NCBI GenBank assembly: GCA_964540825.1
Contig: CAZINT010000001.1
Location: 348,565-412,564 of the forward strand
DNA from: an uncultured Gammaproteobacteria bacterium
Lineage (GTDB): Bacteria; Patescibacteriota; Patescibacteriia; Magasanikbacterales; GWA2-37-8
Length of the DNA stretch: 64,000 bases
Direction of reading: 5' to 3'
The notes beneath the pieces are model-generated. The model saw nothing but the letters and a program-made list of their open reading frames with translations. It searched no databases and had not been told where the DNA came from. How positions within the stretch are numbered: position 1 is the first letter of the stretch; the number at the start of each line of letters is the position of its first letter. This document shows positions 15,501-29,463 of the stretch, in pieces. Position numbers and translations under genes: made by a program.

Positions 15501-15518
15501 GTCTAGAATTTTCCCGAT

Positions 15519-16628
15519 CTAGGTGGGGGGAGTGATGAGTCCGTGCTCCCAGTCGGTGCTGAGGAATTTGGTGAGGTGCGGACGCAGCGCCTGGATGCCG
15601 GGCAATACCAGTTCGGCGTACACCGCGAGCGCACTGCCGGCCTGGGCAAAATCAAGGGCCAGCCCGGTCAGTTCGTGCATCGAGCGGTCCAGTTCGAACT
15701 CGTGACGCATCTTTCTTCCCCGGGTGTTCTGCTGGGCGATCTCGGGGATGAAGCCTAGATGGTCGGTGAGAAAAGCAACTCCCAGTTGGCGACGGTTCGG
15801 CAGGTTCTGCTGTGTAGCCACTGAACAGGAAGCGGCAGTCAGCTCGTTGCCCTGCACTGTCGCGCTGATGCTGTACTGTTGGGTGAAGATCAGGTCCGGA
15901 AGGAGGCTCGCATTGTGCATGCTGGGCCGAAGTACCGGAGGCAGGATGGCGCTGACGCACTCTTCGTAGCGATCCAGATCCACGAAGTTCGGTCCCTCGA
16001 CTTTTTCGACACGGGGCAGCGACTTCCCGAGTTCCACGCTTTCCAGCTTGCGAAGCACTTTCTCGATCAGCTTCGCTTCTTCGCTTGCCAGATAGCGGAG
16101 TGGCCCCACAAAGTAGCGGCGCGCCCGCTCGACTCGCTGCTTGAGCTGGCACCAGTGGAAGGCGATCCAGAGCGGGCCATGATCCCGTCCGATGGGGCGA
16201 CCGTCGTCGAAGGTCCACCTGCACTTGATGATGACGTGCTCGCCGATCGTCTGGCGCATCACGTTGAGGCCGAGTCGGTAACTTCCGCGCCCGAGGGCTA
16301 CTTGGCGCAAGCCCTTATAGCGCAGCGTTCCGATGCCGAACTCCACCGTGTTCTTCTGGCCGGCGAACTCGCCGCTCGCCATTCCCTCTTCGATTCTGAA
16401 GGGGGCGAGCAAATTGCTGGGCTCATGGTAGAGCGACCACTCGGTCGGCAGGAGGGCGTCACTCGGATCGACTCTGACTTCGCCATCGCCCATGTTGTGC
16501 AGAAGGAGAAAAGGGGTCGTGGGCACCTCTTCGTAATCATCCTCGCGCACTTCCCAGGCGCCGAACGGTTGGAGGAGTGGTGGAAGTTGGGGAAAGACGA
16601 TCTGGTTCTTGTAGAAACGAGCAGGCAT
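15519..16628 (-). CDS. hypothetical protein encoded in GC-rich islet 1
   Basis: 369-aa ORF; own promoter (16766-16794, minus), SD-like 'AAGGA', downstream hairpin; no recognisable domain. Confidence 0.5.
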   Translation of the reverse strand: MPARFYKNQIVFPQLPPLLQPFGAWEVREDDYEEVPTTPFLLLHNMGDGEVRVDPSDALLPTEWSLYHEPSNLLAPFRIEEGMASGEFAGQKNTVEFGIGTLRYKGLRQVALGRGSYRLGLNVMRQTIGEHVIIKCRWTFDDGRPIGRDHGPLWIAFHWCQLKQRVERARRYFVGPLRYLASEEAKLIEKVLRKLESVELGKSLPRVEKVEGPNFVDLDRYEECVSAILPPVLRPSMHNASLLPDLIFTQQYSISATVQGNELTAASCSVATQQNLPNRRQLGVAFLTDHLGFIPEIAQQNTRGRKMRHEFELDRSMHELTGLALDFAQAGSALAVYAELVLPGIQALRPHLTKFLSTDWEHGLITPPT

Positions 16629-16765
16629 TCTCTGGTTCCTTGCTCTCCCTTTCCTGGGTTAGGCTCCGGTCGTTTGTGGCGACATGCGGAGGAGTCTTGG
16701 TGACTCTCAGGAGCAGCTCTTGCGAAGTAAAAATTACTTCGCTCAGCTGTTCCGGAGAACAGGTG

Positions 16766-16794
16766 ATAGTACATCAAATAAGTGATTTTGTCAA
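16766..16794 (-). promoter_or_regulatory. sigma-70 consensus promoter on minus strand (TTGACA-17-TACTAT) driving islet-1 gene; ~130-nt leader with two hairpins (16722-16742, 16747-16762)
   Basis: Reverse complement of 16789-16794 = TTGACA; of 16766-16771 = TACTAT. Confidence 0.45.
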
Positions 16795-16812
16795 TAATAA
16801 TGTGATAAAAAT

Positions 16813-16835
16813 AAAGACGCTTTTTAAGCGTCTTT
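16813..16835 (-). terminator. hairpin AAAGACGC-N7-GCGTCTTT immediately 3' of tRNA-Lys (minus strand)
   Basis: Perfect 8-bp stem; T-run follows on minus strand. Confidence 0.45.
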
Positions 16836-16841
16836 ACTCGG

Positions 16842-16914
16842 TGGGTCGGCCGGGGCTCGAACCCGGGACCTTATCCTTAAAAGGGATCTGCTCTACCAGC
16901 TGAGCTACCGACCC
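16842..16914 (-). tRNA. tRNA-Lys (anticodon UUU)
   Basis: Manual fold: acceptor GGGTCGG/CCGACCC, D-arm GCTC/GAGC, anticodon loop CTTTTAA, T-arm CCGGG-TTCGAGC-CCCGG; 73 nt. Confidence 0.8.
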
Positions 16915-17083
16915 AATATGGGTTTCTGGTTGTTTCTAAAATGACAAGGGAAATAATAGCACAGGCTTTTATAATAATCAAGAGCCGGGATTTCCACAGA
17001 GTAGAGCCATTTTATAATTTAGACTTTTACAGGAAGTAATGATATACTAGGGTTGTTTTAGAGCTTATTTTTAGCCTAGGTAT

Positions 17084-17659
17084 ATGATCGATCCTAAATA
17101 TTTTGGCAAAGTCCGCGAAGAACTTTTGGCCTATGCCGAGAAACGACGAGAGGTCATCAAAATGACCGGCGACGCTCAGCACCAATCGAAGCGCGCTATT
17201 TTTGCCTTGCAGCGCGATGATGCTGCTGAAGCAAAAAAATGTTTGGACGAAGCCGGCGGTCTTTTGATGAGTGTGAATAAGAAATTCCAAAAGGATCAGC
17301 GTTTGTTCAACGAAGGATCCTACCGGGCAAGTCTCGAAGAGTTTGCAGAAGCGATGCTCTTCAATCAATTTCTCATGGGTAAGTCAATCGGTGAAATTAA
17401 AGGTTTTAAAGTGGATCCGGATATTTACATTAGCGGCCTCGCTGATGTTCCAGGCGAAATTTTGCGCTATGCGATTAAATCGGCAACGGAACGAAATTTC
17501 TTGATGGTCAAAAAATGTTATGATGTTTGTGAGCGCATAATTAGCGAAATGGTAGATATGGACTTGACCGGCTATAACCGCCAGAAGTTTGATCAGGCCA
17601 AGGGTGCTTTAAATAAATTACAGCAGGTAGTGTACGAAGTAAGTTTGCAGCAGAAATAA
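17084..17659 (+). CDS. hypothetical all-alpha protein (possibly translin-like)
   Basis: 191-aa ORF, predicted helical; family assignment uncertain. Confidence 0.45.
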   Translation: MIDPKYFGKVREELLAYAEKRREVIKMTGDAQHQSKRAIFALQRDDAAEAKKCLDEAGGLLMSVNKKFQKDQRLFNEGSYRASLEEFAEAMLFNQFLMGKSIGEIKGFKVDPDIYISGLADVPGEILRYAIKSATERNFLMVKKCYDVCERIISEMVDMDLTGYNRQKFDQAKGALNKLQQVVYEVSLQQK

Positions 17660-17681
17660 ATCCAGCGCGCTAAACCCTGGA

Positions 17682-17699
17682 TTCCCGCCTGCGCGGGAA
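17682..17699 (+). terminator. short hairpin TTCCCGC-CTGC-GCGGGAA after previous CDS
   Basis: 7-bp GC-rich stem; no clear T-run. Confidence 0.3.
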
Positions 17700-17726
17700 T
17701 GACACGTTGAATGAAAATATCAGTAT

Positions 17727-19013
17727 ATGCTCAAAAAAATGCTTCATTGGGTAGTACCGCATGTAAAAGATTGGCAGTACGGACAACCAGGCAAAAAATT
17801 AATTGTGATTGGTGTAACTGGAACGAAAGGCAAATCCAGCACCTGCCGTTTTATTGCCTCTGTGCTTGAAGCGGGCGGGTATAAAGTTGGTATGATGACT
17901 ACGGTAGAATTCCAGATTGGCGCTGAGCGATTTCCAAATAAACAAAAAATGAGCATGCTCGGTCGCGGGCAGATTCAGGAAATGCTGGCCAAAATGGTAA
18001 AGGCCGGCTGTCAGTACGCGGTGGTAGAAACATCGTCGCAGGGGATACTCCAGAATCGTCACCTGGGCGTGCATTATGATATTGCCGTGTTTACCAATTT
18101 AGGGCGCGAGCATGTCGAGGCGCATGGCAGTTATGAAAATTTGCGTGCCGACAAGGGAAAACTTTTTAAAATTTTAAAAACCGAGCCGAACAAAATTTTG
18201 AATGGCAAAACAATTCCGAAAATAAATATTGTTAATAGCGATGATGCGGAAGCGAAATTTTTTGCGGCGTTTCCGGCCGACGAACATTGGTCGTATGGAA
18301 CAACAATGTCAGATAATCCGCGCCACGTGTTGGCTGAAAAAATTGTGCCCACGAGTAGAGGGGTAGATTTTGTAGTGCGGGGGCAACCGTATTACTTGGC
18401 AGTTTTGGGTGCTTTTAACGCTGCCAATGCCACGGCCGCAATTACCGTCGGGCTTTCTCAAGGAATTGATCCCGCAAAAATTGCTAAAGGCCTGGCAGCC
18501 GTTACATCGATTGCCGGTCGGATGCAGTTTGTTGATGTGGGGCAACCTTTTAAGGTGTTTGTAGATTACGCTCATGAGCCCATGAGCCTCACCGCCCTTT
18601 TTACGGCCCTTAAAACAGTCATTGGGCCGACGCAGCAGGTAATTGGAGTGGTGGGTTCAGACGGCGGCGGGCGCGATAAGGGTAAGCGAGCTGAAATGGG
18701 CCGCATTGCCGGAAAATTGTGCGACCTGGTAGTAATTACTGATGTTAATTGCTACGACGAAGACCCAACCGAAATTGCCGAGATGCTGGCGGCGGGCGCG
18801 CGCGAGGCGGGTAAAAAAGAGGGCGTTGATTTATTTGTTGTACTTGATCGAAAAGCGGGGATAACCAAAGCCCTGGAGCTGGCAAAACCCGGCGATGCGG
18901 TCGCGATTACGGCCAAGGGAACAGAGCCATACATTGCGGTAGCAAATGGAAAACAAATTCCCTGGGACGATGCCGCTGTAGCCAAAGAAATACTAACTGC
19001 AAAATATCGCTAA
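17727..19013 (+). CDS. Mur ligase family protein (MurE-like UDP-N-acetylmuramoyl-tripeptide ligase, short form)
   Basis: ATP-binding 'GVTGTKGKSS', 'LGREHVEAHGSYENLRADKGKLF', 'DYAHEP' motifs. Confidence 0.6.
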   Translation: MLKKMLHWVVPHVKDWQYGQPGKKLIVIGVTGTKGKSSTCRFIASVLEAGGYKVGMMTTVEFQIGAERFPNKQKMSMLGRGQIQEMLAKMVKAGCQYAVVETSSQGILQNRHLGVHYDIAVFTNLGREHVEAHGSYENLRADKGKLFKILKTEPNKILNGKTIPKINIVNSDDAEAKFFAAFPADEHWSYGTTMSDNPRHVLAEKIVPTSRGVDFVVRGQPYYLAVLGAFNAANATAAITVGLSQGIDPAKIAKGLAAVTSIAGRMQFVDVGQPFKVFVDYAHEPMSLTALFTALKTVIGPTQQVIGVVGSDGGGRDKGKRAEMGRIAGKLCDLVVITDVNCYDEDPTEIAEMLAAGAREAGKKEGVDLFVVLDRKAGITKALELAKPGDAVAITAKGTEPYIAVANGKQIPWDDAAVAKEILTAKYR

Positions 19014-19016
19014 AGT

Positions 19017-19649
19017 ATGCTTGCGCGTAAAATTAATTTAGGCCAAGATGAGCGTATTGATCAGGTGATATACCAGCATTATTTTCGTTTTATCGGAAAG
19101 TATTTTTTTGCTGCCATTCTTTTATTGAGTATTTCTTTTTTTAGTGTTTGGCTTTTACACCATGATTGGTGGGGCGAAGCGCTTTTGATCGGAGGTATTA
19201 CTATCGGCTTCTATACGCTGGTTCGCACCTGGCTTGTGCATACGGGCAACCTGCTCGTTATAACATCAGAGCGCGTTGTTCGCGTACAGCGGCGCGGGTG
19301 GTTTGATGAACTGGTTACCTCGATCGCTTTTGAAGCTGTTAGCAACACAACTATCCGCAGGCAGGGGATTTGGGGTCGCTTTTTTAAATATGGAACACTG
19401 GTGCTCTACAGCGCAGAGGATGGTCTCGCTCTCGAAATGTCGTTTGTGCCCGATCCAGAGCTCGTCGAGCAAAGCTTGTTCGATCAGCAGCGGCAGCTGA
19501 ACAATGCTGCTCAGCGAACTGATCGCGATGGAGTATACGGCCGTTTTTTAATGCTGCTGCCCGATTTTTCATTGAGTCAGCTCACCGCTGCCGCGGAGGC
19601 AATAGAACGCCAGATTAGCGAGCAAGAGCGTATTGGCCCAAAGACATAA
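19017..19649 (+). CDS. membrane protein with bacterial PH-like (DUF304-type) domain
   Basis: Two TM helices followed by soluble domain; weak family resemblance. Confidence 0.35.
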   Translation: MLARKINLGQDERIDQVIYQHYFRFIGKYFFAAILLLSISFFSVWLLHHDWWGEALLIGGITIGFYTLVRTWLVHTGNLLVITSERVVRVQRRGWFDELVTSIAFEAVSNTTIRRQGIWGRFFKYGTLVLYSAEDGLALEMSFVPDPELVEQSLFDQQRQLNNAAQRTDRDGVYGRFLMLLPDFSLSQLTAAAEAIERQISEQERIGPKT

Positions 19650-19728
19650 AAGTGCTATACTATTGTTGCCGCGCCGCTTACCGTGTACGGTATCTTTTCA
19701 TTAAGCAACACGAACATTTTATTGCGTT

Positions 19729-20133
19729 ATGCGCCAGAAGTCTGATAGTACCTGGAAAAGAATTTTTTATTCACGCTGGTTCTTGGCCGCACTTTTTGTG
19801 TTGTGTTTCTTGGTAGTATTTGCCTACGCGCGCGCATATTATGCTGATTATCAGGTGGGGCAACAAATCAAGCGTTTGCAAGAAGAAACTAAAGCACTGC
19901 AAGCAAAAAAAATTGAAACGATTGAACTTTTAAATCATGTAAAATCGCCTGCTTTTGTAGAGGAACAAGCTCGAGAAAATTTAAATTTGGTAAAACCAGG
20001 TGAAAACATGGTTATCATAACTCCTCCCCAAAAAGTTCGTGGACAACCTTCGAAGGATGTGATACAACCAGATGAACCGGTAGTTTCGAACCCAAAACAA
20101 TGGTGGAATTACTTTTTTAAACCAAAATCTTAA
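19729..20133 (+). CDS. septum formation initiator family protein (FtsB/DivIC-like)
   Basis: Single N-terminal TM then coiled coil 'QQIKRLQEETKALQAKKIETIELLNHVKSPAFVEEQARENLNLVKPGE'. Confidence 0.5.
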   Translation: MRQKSDSTWKRIFYSRWFLAALFVLCFLVVFAYARAYYADYQVGQQIKRLQEETKALQAKKIETIELLNHVKSPAFVEEQARENLNLVKPGENMVIITPPQKVRGQPSKDVIQPDEPVVSNPKQWWNYFFKPKS

Positions 20134-20154
20134 TTAATTTATAATCAGTTTATT

Positions 20155-21198
20155 ATGGATTCTTCTGAAATGAAGCAGCAAACCGTTACTGAACCGACGG
20201 TGCGTTTAAAATCAGCCAAAGCCAGTGCTAAACATTTTTGGTATGGTATTGGTATTTTTGCAGCTGCAGTTATTGTTGTTGGACTAGGTATTGGCTTGTA
20301 TGCGGTGTACGGCCGTTTGTCCACCAAACCTGCAGTAGTTACTTTTGCGCGCGTGCTTCGTTTGCCGATTGCCAAAGTGAACGGCCAAACTATTTTGTAT
20401 AGTGAATTTGCAACTGATCGCCAGGCAATGACCCTGGTCAATCAGTATGATAAGGCAAATAATGGACCAACCGCAGGCTTAACGCCTGAACAGCAAACTG
20501 ACCAGGTACTTTGGCGCCTTATGAACAATCGTTTGGTGGCTTCAGCAGCAGCGAAATATGCTATTAAGCTTGATCAAACCCAGGTTAAACAGATTCATGA
20601 CGAAATTCTTAAGAAATTCGCTACACCTGCCGATGCAGACAAAGAACTCGCCACCCGGTATGGTTGGAATATGGACACGTACACCAGCAAGGTAATTACC
20701 CAGTATGTGCTCCAAAATCAAGTGGTAGACGCTATAAGTCAGGACGAAAATTGGCGTGCTGTAGTTAAAGATCATGCTCAAAGTGTTTTGGCAAAACTTA
20801 AAGCCGGCGGTGATTTTGCTACCCTTGCGCAGCAGTATAGTGAAGACACTGACACGGGGAGTAAGGGTGGCCAGCTAGACTGGTTCTCAGTCGGTCAAGG
20901 CAAAATGGTTCCTCAGTTTGAACAAGCTGCTCAGAACCTTAAAAAGGGCGAATATACGCAAGAGCTCGTTGAATCACCCTATGGTTTTGATATTATTAAA
21001 TTAGAAGACACACGCACAGTCAAAGAAAAAGATGCTGTAACCGGTAAAGATAGTAACGCTACACAGATCAAGACTGCGCATATTGTTTTTGCCTATGCCA
21101 ACTTGTCGACATATCTTGATTATTTGGCAAGTAAAGCCGATGTACATGTGTATGGAAAAGCAAATAATCCCTTTGCAGTACGCCCGGTAGCTCAATAA
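20155..21198 (+). CDS. parvulin-type peptidyl-prolyl cis-trans isomerase (SurA/PrsA-like) with N-terminal TM anchor
   Basis: PpiC domain 'KGGQLDWFSVGQGKMVPQFEQAAQNLKKGEYTQELVESPYGFDIIKLED'. Confidence 0.65.
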   Translation: MDSSEMKQQTVTEPTVRLKSAKASAKHFWYGIGIFAAAVIVVGLGIGLYAVYGRLSTKPAVVTFARVLRLPIAKVNGQTILYSEFATDRQAMTLVNQYDKANNGPTAGLTPEQQTDQVLWRLMNNRLVASAAAKYAIKLDQTQVKQIHDEILKKFATPADADKELATRYGWNMDTYTSKVITQYVLQNQVVDAISQDENWRAVVKDHAQSVLAKLKAGGDFATLAQQYSEDTDTGSKGGQLDWFSVGQGKMVPQFEQAAQNLKKGEYTQELVESPYGFDIIKLEDTRTVKEKDAVTGKDSNATQIKTAHIVFAYANLSTYLDYLASKADVHVYGKANNPFAVRPVAQ

Positions 21199-21213
21199 AA
21201 ATTTTGACTAAGG

Positions 21214-21240
21214 GAGCGAGGGGATTTCCTTCGCTCTTTG
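21214..21240 (+). terminator. Rho-independent terminator after PPIase gene
   Basis: GAGCGA..TCGCTC imperfect stem followed by TTTGTTTT. Confidence 0.45.
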
Positions 21241-21244
21241 TTTT

Positions 21245-21394
21245 GCGGGTATATTTCGAAATATACCCGCGGCGTTCGCAGTAAATGCTCAAGCTGCGGC
21301 TTGGCATTTCCTACTCACTTGCGGGTATGCTCTGGCATACCCACTCATTCAATGAAAATGACAAAATAAATTTTGTCGCTTTACATTTCATTTC
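21245..21394 (+). repeat. two ~75-bp units each beginning 'GCGGGTAT' and containing an acceptor-stem-like hairpin, in register with tRNA-Gly that also starts GCGGGTAT
   Basis: GCGGGTAT at 21245, 21321, 21395; perfect palindrome GCGGGTATATTTCGAAATATACCCGC (21245-21270); hairpin GGGTATGC-TCTG-GCATACCC (21323-21342). Confidence 0.5.
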
Positions 21395-21468
21395 GCGGGT
21401 ATAGTATAGTGGTAATATGCGACCTTCCCAAGGTCGAGCGACGGGTCCGATTCCCGTTACCCGCTCCA
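21395..21468 (+). tRNA. tRNA-Gly (anticodon CCC), CCA encoded; atypical T-loop (TCCGATT)
   Basis: Manual fold: acceptor GCGGGTA/TACCCGC, D-arm GTAT/ATAT, anticodon stem CGACC/GGTCG loop TTCCCAA, T-stem ACGGG/CCCGT. Confidence 0.7.
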
Positions 21469-21522
21469 TATACACAAGTCAACTTGGGTTTAAGCTGGCG
21501 CGTGAAAATTAATGTAGCTTGT

Positions 21523-22389
21523 ATGCCTGATAAATTTACCGCCACCTGGATTTCTCATACTTCTTCAAGTGATTTTTTGCGCTGCCCGAGGGCGTATTAT
21601 TTAAAGCATGTCTATCGTGACCCAAAAACGAATCATAAAATAAAAGTAATGGCCCCGGCCCTTGCGCTTGGCCAGGCAGTGCACGAAGTTTTGGAAAGTT
21701 TATCGGTTTTACCTAAAAATACTCGCTTTTCAGAGTCACTCATTGCCAAGCTGGATACGGCGTGGGAAAAAGTAAAAGGGAAAAAAGGCGGTTTTATCGA
21801 TGCAGACGTTGAGTACAAATACAAAATGCGCGCGCAAGAAATGCTGAGGCGGGTGATGCAAAATCCCGGGCCCTTAGCTGGCCTTGCTGTAAAAATCCAA
21901 ATGGATCTGCCCTATATATGGTTATCTGAAGAAGATAATATTATTTTGTGTGGTAAGGTCGACTGGCTTGAATATTTGGTCGAGACAGACACAGTACATA
22001 TTATTGATTTTAAAACAGGTAAATCTGAAGAAGATCCGGATTCGCTGCAGCTGCCGATGTATTTACTTCTCGTTAATGAATGCCAGAAGCGGCCTGCTTC
22101 TAAAGCCAGTTATTGGTATTTGGATAGCGGTTCCGCATTGACGCCAAAAGAATTGCCCGACATTGAAAGTGCGCGCAAGAAGGTGCTCGACGTGGCTCGT
22201 CAAATGAAAGTGGCCCGTCAGATCGAGCGTTTTAAATGCCCTGAGGGGGAGGGTGGATGCTTCGCCTGTAAACCAATGGAAATGATCGTGCGCCATGAAG
22301 CAGAATTTGTTGGCAGCGATGAATACAATTGTGATGTCTACGTTTTAGACAAGGCCGAAGAAGAAAATCGCGAAGGAATTATTTTGTAG
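21523..22389 (+). CDS. PD-(D/E)XK nuclease, Cas4/RecB-nuclease-domain-like, with 4-Cys Fe-S cluster signature
   Basis: N-terminal Cys 'LRCPRAYY', 'GKVDWL', 'IIDFKTGK', 'QLPMYLL', C-terminal 'CPEGEGGCFACKP'; start moved to ATG 21523 to clear tRNA-Gly. Confidence 0.6.
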   Translation: MPDKFTATWISHTSSSDFLRCPRAYYLKHVYRDPKTNHKIKVMAPALALGQAVHEVLESLSVLPKNTRFSESLIAKLDTAWEKVKGKKGGFIDADVEYKYKMRAQEMLRRVMQNPGPLAGLAVKIQMDLPYIWLSEEDNIILCGKVDWLEYLVETDTVHIIDFKTGKSEEDPDSLQLPMYLLLVNECQKRPASKASYWYLDSGSALTPKELPDIESARKKVLDVARQMKVARQIERFKCPEGEGGCFACKPMEMIVRHEAEFVGSDEYNCDVYVLDKAEEENREGIIL

Positions 22390-22415
22390 GAAATTTTAAT
22401 AGTGGTGTGCATATA

Positions 22416-22452
22416 AAAAACAACGCCTTGTCAGCGCTGTTTTTAATTTTTT
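22416..22452 (+). terminator. Rho-independent terminator after Cas4-like gene
   Basis: 11-bp stem (one mismatch) AAAAACAACGC..GCGCTGTTTTT followed by T-rich tract. Confidence 0.45.
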
Positions 22453-22454
22453 AA

Positions 22455-22513
22455 CATCCGGGCTCACATTGGGTAACAAATTTTGTTGCGCAATGTGAGC
22501 GGCCCGGATGTGT
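22455..22513 (-). terminator. long imperfect inverted repeat downstream of islet-2 lipoprotein gene
   Basis: CATCCGGGCTCACATTG ... CAATGTGAGC(GG)CCCGGATG arms, internal spacer itself palindromic. Confidence 0.4.
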
Positions 22514-22569
22514 GGTGATTCGAGCTGCACCGGCTGCATGGTGCGTCCGGCCGCTCGAGGGAGGTCAGG

Positions 22570-23325
22570 CTAGTTGATCTTGAGCACGCGCCCCTTGAGG
22601 AGGCAGGTGGTGCTATCTCCGCACTCCTTGGTGTTCACTCCGTCGAAGGAGTACTGGAAGAACAGGACCTGCTGGAACTCCTGCCCGGAGACGAACGCGC
22701 CCGTGTCCACCGTCTGGGTCATCTGCACCGACGTGTTCGCCGGCACCTTGAACGCGAGGTTCTTCGGCTGCGCGTCCGACGGGTAGAGCACGTAGAACAT
22801 GTCGTGGCACTGCGTGCTGTTCGTGGCGTGGAGCGGGGCGGGGGACCAGTTCATGACCCGGTGTGCGTCGTCGACGCCGCCGACGTAGAGGTCGGCGTTG
22901 GCCATGAGGCGGGTCGCGCTCGTGTAGAGGTGCGAGTACGGATGCACCCAGACGTCGGTGGCCTCGGCGGTGAAGTTCGCCACCAGGACCTGCTGCCCGG
23001 GCATCTGCACCACGGACCCGCCCGGACTTTTCACGAGGTCGAGGGACGCCGAGACGACCCCCGGCACGCCCGTCGAGGCGCTCGACTCGGGGTCCTTGAA
23101 CGAGTCGTTGTCCATGCAGAAGCGGACCATCATCGGACCGGGCGGGGGGATGTCCTGGCAGACGTAGACCCCTTGGCCGTCCTTGACCGTGTACTGGTCC
23201 GACCGGCAGTCCGGCAGTTGAAGGGCGTCCTTGGCGCCCGTACCGCCGCACCCACCGGAGAGGACCGAGCTGGCGAGAAGACCGAGGCCGAGAAAAGAAA
23301 TGCTGGAAACCGCGCTGCGCCGCAT
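22570..23325 (-). CDS. secreted lipoprotein, function unknown, in GC-rich islet 2
   Basis: Signal peptide plus lipobox 'VLSGGCGG'; strong SD AAGGAGG 7 nt upstream of ATG; Cys-containing extracytoplasmic domain. Confidence 0.5.
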   Translation of the reverse strand: MRRSAVSSISFLGLGLLASSVLSGGCGGTGAKDALQLPDCRSDQYTVKDGQGVYVCQDIPPPGPMMVRFCMDNDSFKDPESSASTGVPGVVSASLDLVKSPGGSVVQMPGQQVLVANFTAEATDVWVHPYSHLYTSATRLMANADLYVGGVDDAHRVMNWSPAPLHATNSTQCHDMFYVLYPSDAQPKNLAFKVPANTSVQMTQTVDTGAFVSGQEFQQVLFFQYSFDGVNTKECGDSTTCLLKGRVLKIN

Positions 23326-23365
23326 GCACTACCTCCTTGGTAGCCGAGCAGGGCACCTTGCCCCG

Positions 23366-23409
23366 CAGACGGTACTAAGAGAAATACGTATTTCTCTTAG
23401 TACCGTCTG
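23366..23409. repeat. 44-nt near-perfect palindrome (21-bp arms) in 5' region of islet-2 gene
   Basis: CAGACGGTACTAAGAGAAATA-CG-TATTTCTCTTAGTACCGTCTG. Confidence 0.55.
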
Positions 23410-23604
23410 ACTACCGTATGTGCATGATTGCGGCATGCAACCAAAACAGGCTAGCATATTTTTATATATTTGTCAAGGATAGTATTTATTATTTCGGCTA
23501 GAATAAGGTAAAAATTTACTCTTTTTTTCATGAGTGCACATTTGCTTTATGTAGTCGCTAGAGTATACTAGGTACAAAATTTAGTTGTGCATGTAGTTTT
23601 TTGT

Positions 23605-24948
23605 ATGACCAGAAAAAAGAAAATAACCATTGATTTTAACACCGAATTTGGCCGGGCATTCGAATTGATGGAGAAAACCCGCCAGAATGTTTTTATTACC
23701 GGGCGTGCTGGCACTGGCAAATCGACGCTCCTCAGTCATTTTCGCGATACAACCAAAAAGAATGTCGTAGTTCTGGCGCCAACAGGTGTGGCGGCCGTGA
23801 ACATCGCGGGTCAGACAATTCATTCTTTTTTTCATTTTAAACCTGATGTAACGATACAAAAAGTGCGGCGCACTAAAGTGTCCGAAGGAGAGGCGGTTAC
23901 CTATCAACGGCTCGAGACAGTCATAATTGACGAAATTTCCATGGTTCGCGCCGATCTTTTGGATTGCATCGATGTATTTTTACGCCTGCACGGCCCTAAT
24001 TCGAGCAAACCTTTTGGTGGTGTACAGATGATTTTTATCGGTGACTTGTTTCAGTTGCCGCCCGTGACAACAGCTGACGATACCAAGATTTTTGCCGGGC
24101 ACTATGCAAGCCCTTACTTTTTTTCGGCGCACGTATTTTTGCCGGGCCAACAAGAATTATTTGGCGAGCAATCAGGTTTTACAATGGAACGCATTGAACT
24201 TACGAAAATGTATCGTCAAAAAGATGCAGAGTTTATCGGCCTTTTGAATAGCATACGGAGTACAACTGCGGGGAAGGCTGAATTTGATGCTTTGAATGCG
24301 CGGCTTAACCCGGCGTTTGAACCTGCGCCGGAGGAAATGTATATGTACCTTACGACTACTAACGCTATGGCTGATGAAGTAAATGCGCGCAAGCTTAGTC
24401 AGCTCGAAACAGACAATTATTTTTTTAAAGGTCAGATGAGCGGAAAATTTGATGAAAAGTATTTACCAACTGCACCGGATTTAAACATTAAGATTGGCGC
24501 TCAGATAATGATGCTCAATAATGATCTTGGTGGACGCTGGATTAACGGTACTGTGGGCCGCATTGAAGGCGTAACTGATGGGGGAGACGGTGAGCCTCGA
24601 GCGATTGAGGTGCTGCTTGAAAATGGCAGCGTCGAGCTCGTTACCCCGCATCGCTGGGATATTTATAATTTCAGCTACAATGCTGACTCCAAGCGTATCG
24701 AGTCTGAATCGGTCGGTACCTTTACCCAATACCCGTTAAAATTGGCCTGGGCCGTAACGATTCATAAAAGCCAAGGGAAAACGTTTGAACGGCTCATTAT
24801 TGATATTGGACGCGGCACGTTTTCAGCCGGGCAATTGTATGTCGCACTTAGCCGGGCCACAACGCTTGAGGGGCTGGTTCTGAAACGCCCGCTCCAAAAG
24901 CACCATATCTGGCTCGACCCCAAAGTGGTGGCATTTATGAATGAATAA
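23605..24948 (+). CDS. SF1B DNA helicase, Pif1/RecD2 family
   Basis: Walker A 'GRAGTGKST', 'VVVLAPTGVAAVNI', 'IIDEISMV', hallmark 'IGDLFQLPPV', 'TIHKSQGKTFE', 'ALSRATTLEGLVL'; GTG 23587 or ATG 23605 start. Confidence 0.7.
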   Translation: MTRKKKITIDFNTEFGRAFELMEKTRQNVFITGRAGTGKSTLLSHFRDTTKKNVVVLAPTGVAAVNIAGQTIHSFFHFKPDVTIQKVRRTKVSEGEAVTYQRLETVIIDEISMVRADLLDCIDVFLRLHGPNSSKPFGGVQMIFIGDLFQLPPVTTADDTKIFAGHYASPYFFSAHVFLPGQQELFGEQSGFTMERIELTKMYRQKDAEFIGLLNSIRSTTAGKAEFDALNARLNPAFEPAPEEMYMYLTTTNAMADEVNARKLSQLETDNYFFKGQMSGKFDEKYLPTAPDLNIKIGAQIMMLNNDLGGRWINGTVGRIEGVTDGGDGEPRAIEVLLENGSVELVTPHRWDIYNFSYNADSKRIESESVGTFTQYPLKLAWAVTIHKSQGKTFERLIIDIGRGTFSAGQLYVALSRATTLEGLVLKRPLQKHHIWLDPKVVAFMNE

Positions 24949-24982
24949 ATGCTTTATAACTTACATAAATAATAATCTGTGT

Positions 24983-25480
24983 ATGAAGAACTATAAAATT
25001 AGTGTAGGGCTCATAGTTTTGGTGGGGGTCCTTATGGCTTTAGGCGCTTGGTACTTTGTGGGTCTGGTGCCTCCGCAAAGAATTGACGTATGTACGGCTG
25101 AAGCAAAACTTTGTCCCGACGGATCGGCAGTGGGGCGGACGGGTCCGCACTGTTCTTTTGCCGCTTGTCCCAATGAAACTGTGACATCAACAATTGGTCT
25201 AAGCCTCTTGGATAGTGGCACGCTCAGCGGCGTCACACTGCGGCCGCTTGCAATCCTCGAAGACAGCCGCTGCCCGCGTGGAGTTGTGTGTATCTGGGCA
25301 GGGCGGGTGGTTGTTCAAACTGAAGTTACGATTGGAAAGGTTGTGTCAAAGCTTGATCTAACTTTAGGTCAATCGGTGTCTTATGAGGGTGCGGTGATTG
25401 AACTCGTCGAGGTAACACCTGAAAAAATTCCGGATAGTGCAGCAGATACCTATCATTTTAAATTTACTGTAAAGCGTTAA
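24983..25480 (+). CDS. hypothetical secreted or membrane-anchored protein
   Basis: N-terminal hydrophobic segment, Cys pairs; start ambiguous (24941 or 24983). Confidence 0.3.
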   Translation: MKNYKISVGLIVLVGVLMALGAWYFVGLVPPQRIDVCTAEAKLCPDGSAVGRTGPHCSFAACPNETVTSTIGLSLLDSGTLSGVTLRPLAILEDSRCPRGVVCIWAGRVVVQTEVTIGKVVSKLDLTLGQSVSYEGAVIELVEVTPEKIPDSAADTYHFKFTVKR

Positions 25481-25543
25481 ACTGTCAGTCAGTACGCAAG
25501 TATGGTATACTGCACGTAGAAATTTTATTTTAATACATTTTGT

Positions 25544-26059
25544 ATGTGTCACGACACAAACATGTCTATGGAAAAATCGGGTAGCTGTATGGGTTACTGC
25601 TGCCGCAAAAATACAATCTGGAATGTGGTGCTCAAACTTTTTCTAGGAGTCGCGCTTTTTATGCTTGTTTTTTGTATCGGAGCAGCGTCGGTGGTCCGAA
25701 TGACTCGTGGTCGCGTCAGTCGCACGGAAGCCGGTGGTTACATGATGGGTGCGGGGCAGGGGATGATGCAAGGAAATGTTGGTATGGGCTGGAGTGATGA
25801 CCGTGGCATGATGCGCTCGGGACAAGCAGTTGAATGGAAGCGATTATTTGGTTCAATTACCAAAATTGAAGCAAATAAAATAAGTATCCTCGATAATGCT
25901 GCTACCGAAGAAACAGTTCAGAGTCAGCAGGACACAATTATTATTGTGGCTGGTAACGAAGCAGGTTTGGCTGCACTTAAACCTGGGCAGAACGTGGTAA
26001 TTGTTTACCAAGTTGGTCAGGATAAAACCCTGCAAGCTAAAACAATTAGTGTTCAATAA
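25544..26059 (+). CDS. hypothetical membrane-anchored protein with Gly/Met-rich segment
   Basis: TM helix then 'MMGAGQGMMQGNVGMGWSDDRGMM' low-complexity stretch, then globular C-terminus. Confidence 0.35.
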   Translation: MCHDTNMSMEKSGSCMGYCCRKNTIWNVVLKLFLGVALFMLVFCIGAASVVRMTRGRVSRTEAGGYMMGAGQGMMQGNVGMGWSDDRGMMRSGQAVEWKRLFGSITKIEANKISILDNAATEETVQSQQDTIIIVAGNEAGLAALKPGQNVVIVYQVGQDKTLQAKTISVQ

Positions 26060-26074
26060 GATACTATACTTTTT

Positions 26075-26106
26075 AAAAATACTCTGATAGTTATCAGAGT
26101 ATTTTT
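26075..26106. terminator. bidirectional terminator, perfect palindrome between convergent genes
   Basis: AAAAATACTCTGATA-GT-TATCAGAGTATTTTT. Confidence 0.5.
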
Positions 26107-26445
26107 TTAACCATAGATTTGATTTGTTGGCACTGCAGCCGGTTTAGCGAGCACACTTTCGATGCGGGCCATTTCTGCTTCCACAACCGGGCCATCGTAA
26201 TCACCGGAATGAGCAGTAACGCCGCTATAGACCGGAGCCTTTTGATCGAGATGCAGGTTGAAAAGCCATTCGTCACGGTTTTCTTCCAAGTACAAGTGAA
26301 AACGGGGAAAGAGTTCGCCGTGAAACCGTTTGGCGAAACTTTTAATGTTGCCATTACGATCGCGTAAAAGGGCGTAGCCAGCCCGGCGAATGAAGAGTTC
26401 GGGGTCGGGGAGGGTAGTTTTAAGGATTCTCAGTTGCATAGGCAT
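26107..26445 (-). CDS. hypothetical protein
   Basis: 112-aa ORF convergent with upstream gene; no motif recognised. Confidence 0.4.
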   Translation of the reverse strand: MPMQLRILKTTLPDPELFIRRAGYALLRDRNGNIKSFAKRFHGELFPRFHLYLEENRDEWLFNLHLDQKAPVYSGVTAHSGDYDGPVVEAEMARIESVLAKPAAVPTNQIYG

Positions 26446-26483
26446 TTATAGTAGCATTTTTAGCCAAAATTGCAAGGAAAGGG

Positions 26484-26512
26484 TTGACAAAAGACTTAAA
26501 ATGTGCTATAAC
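26484..26512 (+). promoter_or_regulatory. sigma-70 consensus promoter (TTGACA-17-TATAAC) for islet-3 gene
   Basis: TTGACA 26484-26489, TATAAC 26507-26512; SD GAGGGGG then ATG 26590. Confidence 0.45.
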
Positions 26513-26589
26513 GCGTTATTCGTTTCAGCCAATTATGCTGAGCGAAGGCACATTTTACCGCGGTCACTCAGTCCACAGAGAGGGGGTTA

Positions 26590-27193
26590 CATGCCCATGT
26601 CGAAGTATGGTATTCGTTTTCTCCTGTCCTTTAACACCAAGGCGCTGAAGGGGGCCTTGGTTGGTTCCGACACCTCCGGCTACAGCCTCACCATTGGTGC
26701 TGGATTTCAGGGTGGGTGTGGGGAATGGCGAGGCAACTCTTACAGTGTTCGCCAGCCGCCCCGGGATATCGTCATCTTTGATCACTCGGTGCTGGTGGGT
26801 CTCGGCAAGATCGACCTCATCACCCTCGGTCTGTGCCTCAGCATCCTTGATGCCCGAGAGGCTCGCCAGATCCCCGATGGCGACACCGCCTTCATCGACA
26901 CCCGTAACCCCCGCTACCTGCACTTCTGGCGGTTGGTGGAGGACGCTGTCCAGAACCGGACCAGCAGCTTCGAGCACGCTGCCCCGCTCGATGTCGATCG
27001 GGTCATGGGTTTCGTCGCTTGGTTCCGGTTGAACCTGGATGTTCTGGTGGATATGGGCGCGGCAAAGACAGATGTCGTGGACGTCACTGATTTCGTCCTG
27101 GCGGCGCAGGAGTACCTCAAGGCGCTCCTTGGCGGGAACGAGCATCTCCTCGCACTGGCGCGGAGTTGGAGGGCTGCAGAGGTCGCTGCCTAG
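26590..27193 (+). CDS. hypothetical protein in GC-rich islet 3
   Basis: Plus-strand frame preceded by consensus promoter and SD; 201 aa (MPMSKYGIRF..); no recognisable domain. Confidence 0.4.
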
Positions 27194-27210
27194 CCGGGCA
27201 GCAACCAATC

Positions 27211-27249
27211 GGTCGGCAGCGTGATTCACTATCACGCTCCCGACCGACC
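27211..27249 (+). terminator. long interrupted hairpin after islet-3 gene
   Basis: GGTCGG-C-AGCGTGAT-TCACT-ATCACGCT-CC-CGACC. Confidence 0.4.
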
Positions 27250-27261
27250 CGTACCTTATAA

Positions 27262-27290
27262 TTGACACTATTTATTTCTAATACTATACT
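27262..27290 (+). promoter_or_regulatory. sigma-70 consensus promoter (TTGACA-17-TATACT) for tRNA-Thr
   Basis: TTGACA 27262-27267, TATACT 27285-27290, tRNA begins 27307. Confidence 0.45.
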
Positions 27291-27306
27291 AATCACCACA
27301 TAACCA

Positions 27307-27377
27307 GCCTCCTTGGTTCAGTGGTAGAACAGCGGTATCGTAAACCGCATGCGCCAGTTCGATTCTGGCAGGAGGCT
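27307..27377 (+). tRNA. tRNA-Thr (anticodon CGU)
   Basis: Manual fold: acceptor GCCTCCT/AGGAGGC, D-arm GTTC/GAAC, anticodon stem GCGGT/ACCGC loop ATCGTAA, T-arm GCCAG-TTCGATT-CTGGC. Confidence 0.8.
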
Positions 27378-27529
27378 CATCGTCAAATCATATAACTTGT
27401 AACGTGTATCTCAGGCATAGTAGTACGCTTGAGATATGAGATGCAAGATTCGAGCTATATGATCTATCCACATTCCGTTTTCAAGCGGGATTTTTTATTT
27501 ATTGTAAGTATGTTATACTAACCAAACTT

Positions 27530-28210
27530 ATGATTACTTTACAAGGCGTTTCAAAATTTTATACTACTGCTTCGGTCGGACTCCGTGATGTTAACCTCTC
27601 TATTGAGCCTGGGGAATTTGTTTCAATTGTTGGTCAGAGTGGAGTTGGTAAAACAACTCTGGTTAAACTCCTTATTGCCGAAGAGCAGCCGACAAAAGGC
27701 AGGGTGGAAATTGGCGGCTGGGATATTACCCGCATTGGACGCAATGATATTCCATACCTGCGCCGGCAAATTGGCGTTATTTTTCAGGATTTTAAATTGT
27801 TACCTAAAAAAACCGTTTTTGAAAACGTTGCTTTTGCTTTAGAAGTTGCGGGGACTGCCCCGGCGCGCATTAAACAAGTGGTACCCCAAGTACTCGATAT
27901 TGTCGGGCTTGCCGGTAAATATGATCGCTATCCTAATCAGATCTCGGGCGGAGAGCAGCAGCGTGTTGTAATCGCGCGTTCACTCGTGCATACTCCTAAA
28001 ATTATTGTTGCCGATGAACCAACCGGAAACTTAGATTCGATTAATACCGAAGAAATTATCACTATCCTCAAAAAAATTAATGAATTTGGAACAACGATCG
28101 TTTTGGTAACACACAATCGTGAAGTCGTTAATCAACTTCGCCGCCGCGTCATCACGCTCCATGATGGAAAAATTATCAGCGATGAGGCCGAAGGAAAATA
28201 TGTTTTGTAG
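27530..28210 (+). CDS. ftsE: cell division ABC transporter ATP-binding protein FtsE
   Basis: Walker A 'GQSGVGKTT', signature 'LSGGEQQRVVIARS', Walker B 'IIVADEPTGNLD'. Confidence 0.85.
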   Translation: MITLQGVSKFYTTASVGLRDVNLSIEPGEFVSIVGQSGVGKTTLVKLLIAEEQPTKGRVEIGGWDITRIGRNDIPYLRRQIGVIFQDFKLLPKKTVFENVAFALEVAGTAPARIKQVVPQVLDIVGLAGKYDRYPNQISGGEQQRVVIARSLVHTPKIIVADEPTGNLDSINTEEIITILKKINEFGTTIVLVTHNREVVNQLRRRVITLHDGKIISDEAEGKYVL

Positions 28211-28213
28211 CTT

Positions 28214-29122
28214 ATGACTTCATTCCTGCGCATTATTAAATTTGCTTTTCAAGACATTGCCCGCAATTTGGGCTTGTCGTTTATGACCGTGTTTATTTTG
28301 GTCCTCATGCTTTTGTCGATCAATATTTTGTGGTCGGTGCAAGTAGTCACCACAGAAGCGGCCGGGCTTATCAAAAATCAAGTCAATGTTAGCTTTTATT
28401 TAGTATCAACTGCTACCGATAAAAATATTGCCGATCTCAAAAATTTTATTACTTCTTTTTCAGAGGTTACGAATGTCGAAGTGCTGTCTCGCCAAGACGT
28501 GCTTGCCTCGTTTCAGCAGCGCCACCAAATGAGTCAGGAGGTTCTTGATGCGCTCAAAGAGCTTGGCGGCAACCCTTTTGGGCCTACGCTCGTGGTTACG
28601 GCCAAACAGCCCGAAGACTATACCAAAATTATCAGTGCGCTTGATGTACCTGAATACCGTCCGCTTATTGAATCTAAGAGTTTTGATGGTCACGAAGAAG
28701 CCATTACCACTATTCAAAATATTACTAATCGGGTAGAAAACGTCGGCCTCGGCTTATCGCTCATTTTTGCTGTTATTTCATTCATGATTATTTTTAATAC
28801 TATTCGAGTAGCGATTTATACTCAGCGTACTGAAATCAGTATTAAACGTCTGGTAGGGGCTAATAATTGGTTTATACGCGGCCCTTATTTGGTAGAGTCG
28901 GCCCTGTTTACCTTGCTCAGCGTTATTGTTACGGGCCTCATTATTTATAAGGCTTTTGGCCTCATTGACCCCTACCTCAGCGTTGTTTTCCCGACCGGCT
29001 TTTCCTTGACAAATTACTACCATTCACATATCCTTACGTTGATTTTAGTCCAGGGTGGAGCGGTATTATTCTTGACCGTACTCTCGAGCGGCCTTGCTAT
29101 GCAGAAGCATCTAAAGGTCTAG
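28214..29122 (+). CDS. ftsX: cell division permease-like protein FtsX
   Basis: Adjacent to ftsE; N-terminal TM, periplasmic domain, C-terminal 3-TM FtsX-like module. Confidence 0.75.
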   Translation: MTSFLRIIKFAFQDIARNLGLSFMTVFILVLMLLSINILWSVQVVTTEAAGLIKNQVNVSFYLVSTATDKNIADLKNFITSFSEVTNVEVLSRQDVLASFQQRHQMSQEVLDALKELGGNPFGPTLVVTAKQPEDYTKIISALDVPEYRPLIESKSFDGHEEAITTIQNITNRVENVGLGLSLIFAVISFMIIFNTIRVAIYTQRTEISIKRLVGANNWFIRGPYLVESALFTLLSVIVTGLIIYKAFGLIDPYLSVVFPTGFSLTNYYHSHILTLILVQGGAVLFLTVLSSGLAMQKHLKV

Positions 29123-29142
29123 TTTGGAGGGTACAGCCACGC

Positions 29143-29169
29143 ATTCCGCCTTCTTGGCGGAATTTTTAT
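29143..29169 (+). terminator. Rho-independent terminator after ftsX
   Basis: ATTCCGCC-TTCTT-GGCGGAAT then TTTTAT. Confidence 0.5.
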
Positions 29170-29240
29170 TCGGGGATCGTCTAAAGGTAGGACAGCAGCC
29201 TTTGAAGCTGTTTATCTAGGTTCGATTCCAACCAGTGGAT
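29170..29240 (+). pseudogene. degenerate tRNA-Gln-like copy (intact 5' half incl. anticodon loop CTTTGAA; T-stem and 3' acceptor strand do not pair)
   Basis: TCGGGGA-TC-GTCT-AAAGGTA-GGAC-A-GCAGC-CTTTGAA-GCTGT-TTAT-CTAGG-TTCGATT-CCAAC-CAGTGGA; same architecture as 29274-29347 but 3' half unpaired. Confidence 0.3.
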
Positions 29241-29273
29241 TGAACCTTTAACAAGTTGGCTAACATAACACAC

Positions 29274-29347
29274 TCGGAGTTCGTCTAACGGCAGGACAGC
29301 GCCCTTTGAAGGCGCTTATCCAGGTTCGAATCCTGGACTCCGAACCA
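29274..29347 (+). tRNA. tRNA-Gln (anticodon UUG), CCA encoded
   Basis: Manual fold: acceptor TCGGAGT/ACTCCGA, D-arm GTCT/GGAC, anticodon stem GCGCC/GGCGC loop CTTTGAA, T-arm CCAGG-TTCGAAT-CCTGG, then ACCA. Confidence 0.8.
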
Positions 29348-29365
29348 AGTAATCTAACTTCCAAA

Positions 29366-29392
29366 AAGTTCGCTTAATCGCGAGCTTTTTTT
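29366..29392 (+). terminator. Rho-independent terminator after tRNA-Gln
   Basis: AAGTTCGC-TTAATC-GCGAGCTT (one U.G) followed by TTTTT. Confidence 0.5.
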
Positions 29393-29463
29393 GTTGCTCG
29401 CCATAGGTCGAAAACAAAAATTACCTTGGCATTTATGAATCCTTAAAGGGTTCCCAGCTTACC

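Follow-up and report, generated by a model that had tools for sequence, protein, structure and literature searches.

A GC-rich orphan lipoprotein gene between nuclease and Pif1 helicase genes, probably an old self-contained cassette in a mid-GC chromosome

How does a single gene of strongly deviating base composition come to lie between two chromosomal genes, and how does it keep that composition? The question is raised by a GC-rich islet in a stretch of 64,000 nucleotides (nt) of contig CAZINT010000001.1 (assembly GCA_964540825.1, positions 348,565–412,564; the whole stretch is hereafter called the window), in which one lipoprotein-type gene separates the genes for a Cas4-like nuclease and a Pif1-family helicase, both of DNA-repair type, in a bacterium with a small genome. 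We consider it probable that the islet is an old, horizontally acquired and self-contained expression cassette of a single gene, resembling the morons of phages but residing in the chromosome, with hairpins that act at the RNA level.

A GC-rich islet with an empty site in a close relative

A maximal-segment scan identified positions 22499–23372 as the top GC-rich segment of the window (874 nt, 66.4% GC against 46.5% overall), and sliding-window GC rises from approximately 0.44 outside to 0.60–0.68 across 22450–23350. Both edges of the segment fall inside hairpins (22454–22511 and 23366–23409). The segment holds one open reading frame (ORF) only, at 22570–23325 on the minus strand, whose GC contents at the first, second and third codon positions (GC1, GC2 and GC3) are 0.60, 0.45 and 0.92; GC3 of the remaining ORFs of at least 90 amino acids (aa) in the window is 0.32–0.75, with 0.42–0.49 being typical of host genes. 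An earlier reading, made from the sequence only, had described a sharply GC-rich islet with a single lipoprotein-type gene and an AAGGAGG Shine-Dalgarno (SD) sequence. GC and codon-position analysis bore out the compositional anomaly (66% against 46% GC, GC3 of 0.92 against approximately 0.45), the gene and the SD sequence (23332–23338) are as described, and domain matches confirmed both of the neighbours that the islet had been said to separate.

Comparison of the nuclease-helicase interval among relatives, which that reading had proposed as a check, found the insert in one close relative and an empty site in another. A homologous gene (encoding P0001) occupies the same site between the Pif1 and nuclease genes in the metagenome-assembled genome (MAG) GCA_964510495.1 (L001), and an independent Logan contig (L002) runs from tRNA-Gly through the nuclease gene, hairpins, lipoprotein gene and palindrome to the start of Pif1. 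In the sibling genome L004, whose nuclease and Pif1 proteins are 89% and 90% identical to those of the window, only 41 nt lie between the stop codon of the nuclease gene and the Pif1 ATG, and no GC-rich segment is present there. Because the window is homologous to L004 up to that stop codon (22389) and again from the Pif1 ATG (23605) onwards, the indel comprises 22390–23604, and because L004 has both genes 41 nt apart, the whole interval, which holds AT-rich predicted promoters and a predicted terminator besides its GC-rich core, is an insertion or a deletion. The features that define the site are as follows.

21395–21468, tRNA-Gly
21523–22389, plus strand, Cas4-like PD-(D/E)XK nuclease gene (PF12705, E-value 4.6e-23)
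22390–23604, whole indel, 1,215 nt, in the window and L001/L002; a 41-nt spacer in L004
22400–22415, left copy of an imperfect direct repeat of approximately 15 nt, TAGTGGTGTGCATATA, 10 nt past the nuclease stop codon
22570–23325, minus strand, orphan lipoprotein coding sequence, 251 aa, GC3 of 0.92, predicted signal MRRS...VLSGG followed by C26
23582–23596, right copy of the direct repeat, TAGTTGTGCATGTAG, 8 nt before the Pif1 ATG
23605–24948, plus strand, Pif1-family helicase gene (PF05970, E-value 1.8e-27)

Composition favours an insertion over a deletion. The direct repeat is present in L002 too, where its left copy reads TAGTTGTGTGTATATA, and the estimated chance of such a repeat at these positions is approximately 1–3%, which is suggestive only; the 41-nt spacer of L004 has a single loosely similar stretch (AAGCTGTGGTTTATTAG). 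The islet had earlier been taken for a discrete inserted cassette bracketed by its hairpins: the empty site in L004 agrees with the first part of this description and the hairpins do not fit the second, as each is set back from its end of the indel, by 64 nt and 195 nt, and they are therefore not the termini of what was inserted.

That foreign GC-rich DNA was joined to the contig at the hairpins by the assembler, an artefact which the sequence-only reading had allowed for, is exceedingly improbable. The same gene order was assembled in a different sample by two pipelines, with one contig spanning all of it, and a third member of the gene family, described below, was seen in both Joint Genome Institute (JGI) and Logan assemblies. 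In favour of a chimera, the Logan contigs from the samples of the window itself (SRR11567520 and SRR11567528; L086 and L087) stop inside the palindrome, at 23380 and 23373 in its left arm, so that the join lacks independent confirmation and, in the window genome, rests on synteny with L001/L002 only. The palindrome itself is real, because these contigs, which match the window 100%, run through its centre, and a contig break at a perfect 44-nt palindrome would be expected of k-mer-graph assembly; perfect palindromes of this kind fragment k-mer assemblies right at the edges of islets.

Age of the insert

Between the window and L001, DNA identity is 75–85% in the part of the gene encoding the mature domain and approximately 80% in the flanking genes. 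Identity at four-fold degenerate sites is close to that expected at full saturation for all three genes:

lipoprotein gene, observed 0.49, expected at full saturation 0.42
Pif1 gene, observed 0.37, expected at full saturation 0.26
nuclease gene, observed 0.36, expected at full saturation 0.25

Corrected for composition, the residual identity is 0.12 for the lipoprotein gene and approximately 0.15 for the flanks, which are indistinguishable. Because its synonymous divergence equals that of the flanking genes, the insert is old and vertically inherited, with no sign of an age below that of the split between the two genomes. The view of the GC-rich islet as a recent insert consequently fails, a second sibling genome having it at the same site with the synonymous divergence of its flanks.

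An orphan lipoprotein family of three members

The closest homologue of the window protein is P0001, the single match of a word-indexed search of 5.8 billion protein clusters (71% identity, best local alignment), to which a full HMMER profile search, run over 1.84 billion representatives, added P0002 (E-value 4.6e-22). A profile built from all three members retrieved no additional homologue, leaving a family of three among approximately 15 billion proteins, with protein identities of 35–71% and GC3 values of 0.92, 0.88 and 0.94, against 0.42–0.48 in host genes, all within genomes of 46–48% GC. No family was assigned to the lipoprotein at E-values up to 5 in Pfam, NCBIfam, PHROGs or PADLOC, a sequence-profile search of the PDB gave nothing at E ≤10, and exact-protein look-ups of the window lipoprotein, the nuclease and the ATG-start Pif1 protein matched no record. 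The window holds no paralogue of the lipoprotein.

P0002 is encoded between groEL and prfA in a contig of 48% GC (L083, also seen as L084; the locus was recovered in both JGI and Logan assemblies), within a 1,123-nt segment of 64% GC. The layout there is the same as in the window, with a TTGACA-17-TGcTAGGCT promoter sequence, a long leader hairpin, an AAGGAG SD sequence and a GC-rich ORF; no flanking direct repeats were found at this locus. The family is thus far known solely as GC-rich islets in mid-GC genomes. The same approximately 1.1-kb GC-rich segment of L083 also contains a second GC-rich orphan ORF (10907–11209, minus strand, 100 aa, 60% GC), convergent with the lipoprotein homologue.

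In each of the three members, K or R occurs among residues 1–7, together with a hydrophobic core and a lipobox, with the window protein reading MRRS...LLASSVLSGG-C26, P0001 ...TIGLVA-C21 and P0002 ...FLLAA-C16. Read against a PROSITE PS51257-type signal rule (K or R at one of residues 1–7, a hydrophobic stretch free of charge, Cys at 15–35 and the lipobox [LIVMFWSTAG](2)-[LIVMFYSTAGCQ]-[AGS]-C), the three sequences conform. The product is therefore predicted to be a lipoprotein, cut before a putatively lipid-modified Cys26. Lipobox ORFs also occur elsewhere in the window, at 11666–12250 (...TASG-C) and 54474–55946 (...LTAG-C).

Besides the lipobox Cys, six further cysteines are invariant across the three members, which also share motifs including NWSPAxLHAT and FYVLYP. 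An in-frame stop two codons 5′ of the ATG closes the ORF, and the lipoprotein frame is the only one that stays open in all three homologous genes. We regard the ORF as coding because it is the sole shared open frame and has lipoprotein signals, invariant cysteines and a ratio of nonsynonymous to synonymous divergence (dN/dS) of 0.25–0.38. An antisense or alternative-frame gene was considered and rejected: a stop interrupts the antisense frame in L001, and we attribute its openness in the window and L083 to the high sense GC3, which makes antisense stops rare.

The dN/dS of the lipoprotein gene between the window and L001 is 0.38 overall and approximately 0.25 in the mature part, with dN of 0.27 and 0.155, respectively; for the flanking genes dN is 0.05–0.07 and dN/dS 0.02–0.03. 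The rate of change of the mature domain is several-fold that of the neighbouring proteins, a behaviour known from exposed surface proteins. The DNA encoding the signal peptide and linker is nearly unalignable with that of L001 (40–46% identity). AlphaFold predictions reached a mean predicted local distance difference test (pLDDT) score of 33 with two sequences and, with three, gave an all-beta model of low confidence (pLDDT 54, predicted template modelling score 0.53). The predicted product would be a disulfide-bonded all-beta domain on the outward-facing side of the membrane, with a putative function at the surface.

Hairpins, promoters and the predicted transcript

The non-coding parts of the insert are predicted to supply the signals for transcription and translation of the gene, together with a promoter directed at the helicase gene.

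22413–22447, both strands, bidirectional intrinsic-terminator-like hairpin with T runs on both strands (−14.1 kcal/mol)
22454–22511, minus strand, imperfect 58-nt hairpin of approximately 24 bp with a 3-nt bulge (−30.7 kcal/mol), in the predicted 3′ untranslated region (UTR)
22512–22569, minus strand, GC-rich (69%) non-coding 3′ stretch with its own hairpin at approximately 22520–22558
23332–23338, minus strand, SD sequence AAGGAGG, 6 nt 5′ of the ATG and identical in L001
23347–23365, minus strand, small GC hairpin GGGGCA-AGG-UGCCC between the palindrome and the SD sequence
23366–23409, minus strand, perfect 22+22 palindrome of 44 nt in the predicted 5′ leader (fold of −31.1 kcal/mol)
23448–23476, minus strand, predicted lipoprotein promoter with −35 TTGACA (23471–23476), a 17-nt spacer and extended −10 TGcTAGCCT (23448–23456)
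23542–23569, plus strand, predicted Pif1 promoter on the insert with TTGCTT (23542–23547), a 16-nt spacer and TATACT (23564–23569)

The two large hairpins had been noticed before, at 22455–22513 and 23366–23409; both are real and the palindrome is exact, the first being a 58-nt structure at 22454–22511 and thus displaced by 1–2 nt. They are among just five inverted repeats of at least 16 nt (arms at most 60 nt apart) in the 64 kb, and neither recurs elsewhere in the window, on which ground a repeated element was rejected. As RNA, the 5′ region folds with a z-score of −9.35 and the 3′ region with one of −5.64; none of 200 shuffles was as stable. Covariance models of Rfam, run over 14000–30000 at E ≤0.1, matched only tRNAs and one chance-level hit, and the candidates riboswitch, known leader and RNA thermometer were rejected for want of an Rfam match.

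Conservation between the window and L001 is uneven, other intergenic DNA being 49–86% identical. The 58-nt hairpin, just upstream of the predicted terminator, is 57/58 identical (98%), and 22405–22450, which includes the terminator that would serve the convergent nuclease and lipoprotein genes, is 45/46 identical. The palindrome is 36/44 identical (82%), with the L001 version imperfect (−22.0 kcal/mol) and showing one double change that preserves a pair (G-C to A-U). Identity is 36/40 across 23326–23365 and 65/67 across 23541–23607, which includes the predicted Pif1 promoter, absent from L004. The stretch 22512–22569 is only 51% conserved and still 60% GC in L001. The lipoprotein promoter is kept in L001 (TTGACG / TGgTAGCCT) and mirrored in L083 (TTGACA / TGcTAGGCT), giving a shared pattern TTGAC-N17-TGnTAGnCT.

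Since the conserved predicted promoter and terminator lie outside them, both large hairpins fall within the predicted mRNA, where the palindrome begins approximately 31 nt past the predicted transcription start in a leader of approximately 115 nt. They best fit putative RNA-level elements, with a role in mRNA stability, translation control or termination, and the fact that the 58-nt hairpin has hardly changed between the two genomes hints that its sequence may be specifically recognised. Readings of the hairpins as recombination sites are poorly supported because they are not at the indel ends, are mutually unrelated and lack attC cores. This bears on whether the islet is a mobile cassette of a known type, either an integron cassette with the hairpin as attC, or an element with hairpin ends of the IS200/IS605 type or resembling palindrome-associated transposable elements (PATE). 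A hairpin of approximately 59 nt just 3′ of a single ORF and hairpins at both compositional edges are what such an element would present. Nonetheless, the ends of the 58-nt hairpin, ACATCCG...CGGATGT, lack the attC cores RYYYAAC / GTTRRRY (the nearest GTT motif, GTTAAAA, has A in place of the required Y), a promoter of its own is predicted for the gene, there is a single unit and no cassette array, and none of the seven neighbouring ORFs tested (21.4–27.3 kb) has an integrase or other recombinase domain. With the hairpins unrelated to one another, unique in the 64 kb and internal to the indel, a known mobile cassette is largely refuted and very improbable.

Persistence of GC-richness

The age of the insert sits uneasily with its composition. 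GC content at four-fold degenerate sites (GC4) is 0.91 in both genomes, and a neutral model of amelioration (a simple F81-type model over 86 sites, calibrated on the two flanking genes and assuming the islet in the common ancestor) gives 0.72 ± 0.05 even from a start at 100% GC (P ~3e-4). Because GC4 exceeds this neutral expectation, plain foreign DNA not yet ameliorated is an insufficient description. Either GC-richness is actively held in place, or the alleles have been fed from an unsampled GC-rich pool.

Retention in situ would make GC-richness a property of the family and not the trace of a donor, and is compatible with an ancient insertion. It could come about through selection on the nucleic acid, which might favour a structured, nuclease-resistant and long-lived mRNA with UTR hairpins, or through a hairpin-bounded tract of GC-biased repair or gene conversion. 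Four-fold sites are near saturation (0.49 against 0.42) though GC4 stays at 0.91, and 22 of the 42 synonymous third-position differences are G<->C swaps. Three members at two loci, with 35–71% protein identity, keep GC3 at 0.88–0.94 in genomes of 46–48% GC, the non-coding stretch 22512–22569 retains 60–69% GC in both genomes at 51% conservation, the GC segment terminates within both hairpins, and the databases searched yielded no GC-rich donor lineage. Against this, we know of no mechanism by which a single bacterial gene within a mid-GC genome is kept at GC3 0.9, and the GC-biased conversion effects reported in bacteria are small; the test itself is a simple model on 86 sites and two flanking genes, the presence of the islet in the common ancestor is assumed and just two to three sequences are compared. 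We therefore treat maintenance in place as a possibility that is rather doubtful at present. The corresponding notion of a GC-locked orphan lipoprotein family of mid-GC bacteria with small genomes (probably of the candidate phyla radiation), with third positions and adjacent non-coding DNA held at approximately 90% G+C, despite saturating synonymous turnover that consists mostly of G<->C swaps, in a tract ending at conserved hairpins, is likewise put forward tentatively. If true, it would mean that nucleic-acid composition is itself selected (for a nuclease-resistant transcript, or for escape from an AT-directed nuclease or silencer) or arises by hairpin-bounded GC-biased repair or conversion, and two other GC-rich islets of the window (15461–16592 and 26641–27251) would be further cases.

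Alternatively, the window and L001 alleles may have diverged in an unsampled GC-rich pool, in a host or a mobile element, and then entered the same site separately, or been replaced there repeatedly, by cassette exchange, using the hairpins or the 15-nt direct repeats as recombination sites. In favour of this, both alleles keep a high GC3, the N-terminal part of the gene has 40–46% DNA identity against 90–98% in adjoining non-coding blocks, imperfect direct repeats stand at both ends of the indel and a family member occurs at an unrelated locus in L083. However, the AT-rich promoters, hairpins and terminator within the indel are common to both genomes and native-looking, no recombinase gene was found among the seven ORFs tested, the hairpins neither recur in the window nor resemble each other, L083 lacks flanking direct repeats and no member was found in the protein, phage, plasmid, viral or JGI searches, so that this explanation is improbable.

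Origin and proposed course of events

The sequence-only reading had suggested that the lipoprotein could have been acquired from a host or could serve to interact with one. For an acquisition from a host we found no support: there is no donor in the approximately 15 billion proteins, tblastn against INPHARED and PLSDB and a scan of IMG/VR gave no phage, plasmid or viral match, and a scan of JGI metagenomes gave no confirmed match to the lipoprotein.

Under the explanation that we favour, an old, horizontally acquired single-gene cassette, the insert would have entered between the nuclease stop codon and the Pif1 start codon, formerly adjacent, separating the helicase gene from its former upstream partner and bringing a replacement predicted promoter. 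Leftward transcription would start from the cassette's own near-consensus extended −10 promoter and yield an mRNA with a structured leader carrying the palindrome and the small GC hairpin, a strong ribosome-binding site, the 251-aa ORF and a 3′ UTR with two stable hairpins, including that of 58 nt, before the bidirectional terminator shared with the nuclease gene. Both large hairpins would thus act on the RNA and not as recombination sites. The signal peptide would be cut before Cys26, where a lipid would anchor the beta domain.

Several observations weigh against this explanation. GC4 is higher than expected if the insert dates from the common ancestor (0.91 against approximately 0.72), and none of the three family members comes from a GC-rich genome, phage, plasmid or viral contig, which leaves the cassette without a donor. 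The direct repeats, which fit a duplication made by insertion, suit a repeat-mediated deletion in L004 equally well, and the distant genomes L005–L008 (Pif1 60–71% identical) have other genes upstream of Pif1, without the nuclease-Pif1 adjacency, and so provide no polarisation. The promoters are consensus matches only, and a simple promoter scan missed that of the lipoprotein gene. The lipobox of the window protein has Ser at −3, non-canonical for a strict L-[AS]-[GA]-C box. The structural model, from the structure prediction proposed at the outset, is poor, and a structure search with it returned only generic immunoglobulin-like beta-sandwiches (Foldseek against the PDB, template modelling score ≤0.32); these matches were not used to assign a function.

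As a single-gene islet the locus is of an ordinary kind, and it adds one more orphan, predicted to be exposed at the surface, to the proteins of a lineage in which the biology of the cell surface is hardly known. What is unusual is a gene with GC3 of approximately 0.9 and no GC-rich relatives, its composition kept in a 46% GC genome through synonymous saturation, with a distant homologue at another locus that is equally GC-rich. Were active maintenance the cause, the islet would be a clean natural case in which to study how the base composition of a single gene is held, and a warning against equating GC-rich with recently foreign.

Genomic neighbourhood and further GC-rich stretches

The neighbourhood, which includes tRNA-Gly, a Mur ligase gene, ftsEX and similar genes, is conserved in three genomes. 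For the nuclease, the Pfam Cas4 model remains below threshold and PADLOC Cas4 models reach an E-value of 2.4e-12; the longer listed ORF (from 21373) overlaps tRNA-Gly, and the gene probably starts at the ATG at 21523 (MPDKF). The Pif1 ATG at 23605 aligns with the start in L004, gene callers having used a GTG at 23587. L001 and L004 derive from Polish wastewater and river metagenomes (SRP286056; PMC9405806), and among other named genomes only a Magasanikbacteria MAG (L012) has the two flanking genes close together. The lineage is probably Patescibacteria. The records of several relatives (L003–L008, L035, L036 and L081) are titled Gammaproteobacteria, which may be placeholder taxonomy; their gene content and nearest named relatives are Patescibacteria-like.

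Three further GC-rich stretches occur in the window. The islet at 15461–16592 (61.7% GC, GC3 of 0.75) adjoins tRNA-Lys (16840–16914) and carries a 369-aa ORF (15519–16628, minus strand) whose sole match in the 5.8 billion protein clusters is itself and which has no family in Pfam, NCBIfam, PHROG or PADLOC; its layout is alike, with a strong promoter sequence, a structured leader and a GC hairpin (15463–15502) past the stop codon. The islet at 26641–27251 (62% GC) lies beside tRNA-Thr and has ORFs on both strands (26591–27193, plus; 26564–27268, minus). Gene callers took the minus strand, and a consensus promoter (TTGACA...TGcTATAAC) points to the plus strand. Its DNA is 90% identical to that of L001, above the 82–85% of ftsE/ftsX, which is odd for an orphan gene, and at the matching position, compared by position only, L004 has an ORF of lower GC content (56%). 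The stretch at 1754–2613 (59% GC) is not an islet, being the Pro/Ala/Ser-rich low-complexity C-terminal tail of a 793-aa protein (261–2642) with an ordinary GC3 of 0.45. Because L001 holds additional short GC-rich segments of its own (63% GC; 990–1347 and 7348–7545), GC-rich islets seem to be a recurring trait of this lineage.

A prophage-like region of host-like GC extends over approximately 29400–64000 beside tRNA-Gln (29274–29347) and encodes RecT, an exonuclease, a replication initiator, a DnaB-like helicase and a ParB-like protein, together with a terminase large subunit, a head-tail adaptor (connector) and virion proteins. Homology with L001 ends at approximately 29229, and this relative seems to be without the prophage-like region. 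At 29174–29234, upstream of tRNA-Gln by 40 nt, a weak tRNA-like match scores 26.8 bits, short of the Rfam threshold; it may represent a degenerate tRNA or what is left of the prophage attachment site.

Comparison with known systems

The islet resembles an integron cassette in having one ORF followed by an imperfect inverted repeat of approximately 59 nt. It differs in having no attC cores, integrase, attI or array, in its own predicted promoter, and in a hairpin that is internal to the indel, with a distinct predicted terminator after it. Elements of the IS200/IS605 type, PATE and miniature inverted-repeat transposable elements have related end hairpins, multiple copies and a TnpA transposase, whereas here the hairpins are unrelated, unique and internal.

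Phage morons are autonomous promoter-ORF-terminator units between genes that are adjacent in related phages, among them bor of phage lambda, which encodes a lipoprotein. The islet is alike in its single ORF, in its predicted lipoprotein product, in a composition unlike that of its neighbours and in its absence from between the same genes in a close relative; a promoter and terminator of its own are predicted at the level of consensus matches. Unlike a moron, it lies in chromosomal housekeeping DNA, the prophage of the window being elsewhere (from approximately 29.4 kb to 64 kb) and of host-like GC, and it is old and vertically inherited and supplies a predicted promoter to a downstream host gene.

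Stem-loops at the 5′ end protect mRNAs of Gram-positive bacteria, and 3′ hairpins of the repetitive extragenic palindromic type are likewise stabilisers. The likeness is in the very stable, conserved hairpins of the predicted 5′ leader and 3′ UTR. In contrast to the known 5′ stabilisers, the 5′ hairpin here is predicted to lie approximately 31 nt from the 5′ end and not at it, with transcript ends that are themselves predictions, and the 58-nt hairpin is conserved in sequence (57/58) and not in pairing alone.

Horizontally acquired genes and islands have been documented in Patescibacteria, also known as the candidate phyla radiation (PMC12455944). The present islet shares with them an atypical composition, a patchy presence in close relatives and a product without assigned function. 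It departs from them in that no donor can be named and no conflicting phylogeny was identified for a family of three homologues, all in mid-GC genomes, and in that its GC-richness outlasts saturating synonymous divergence.

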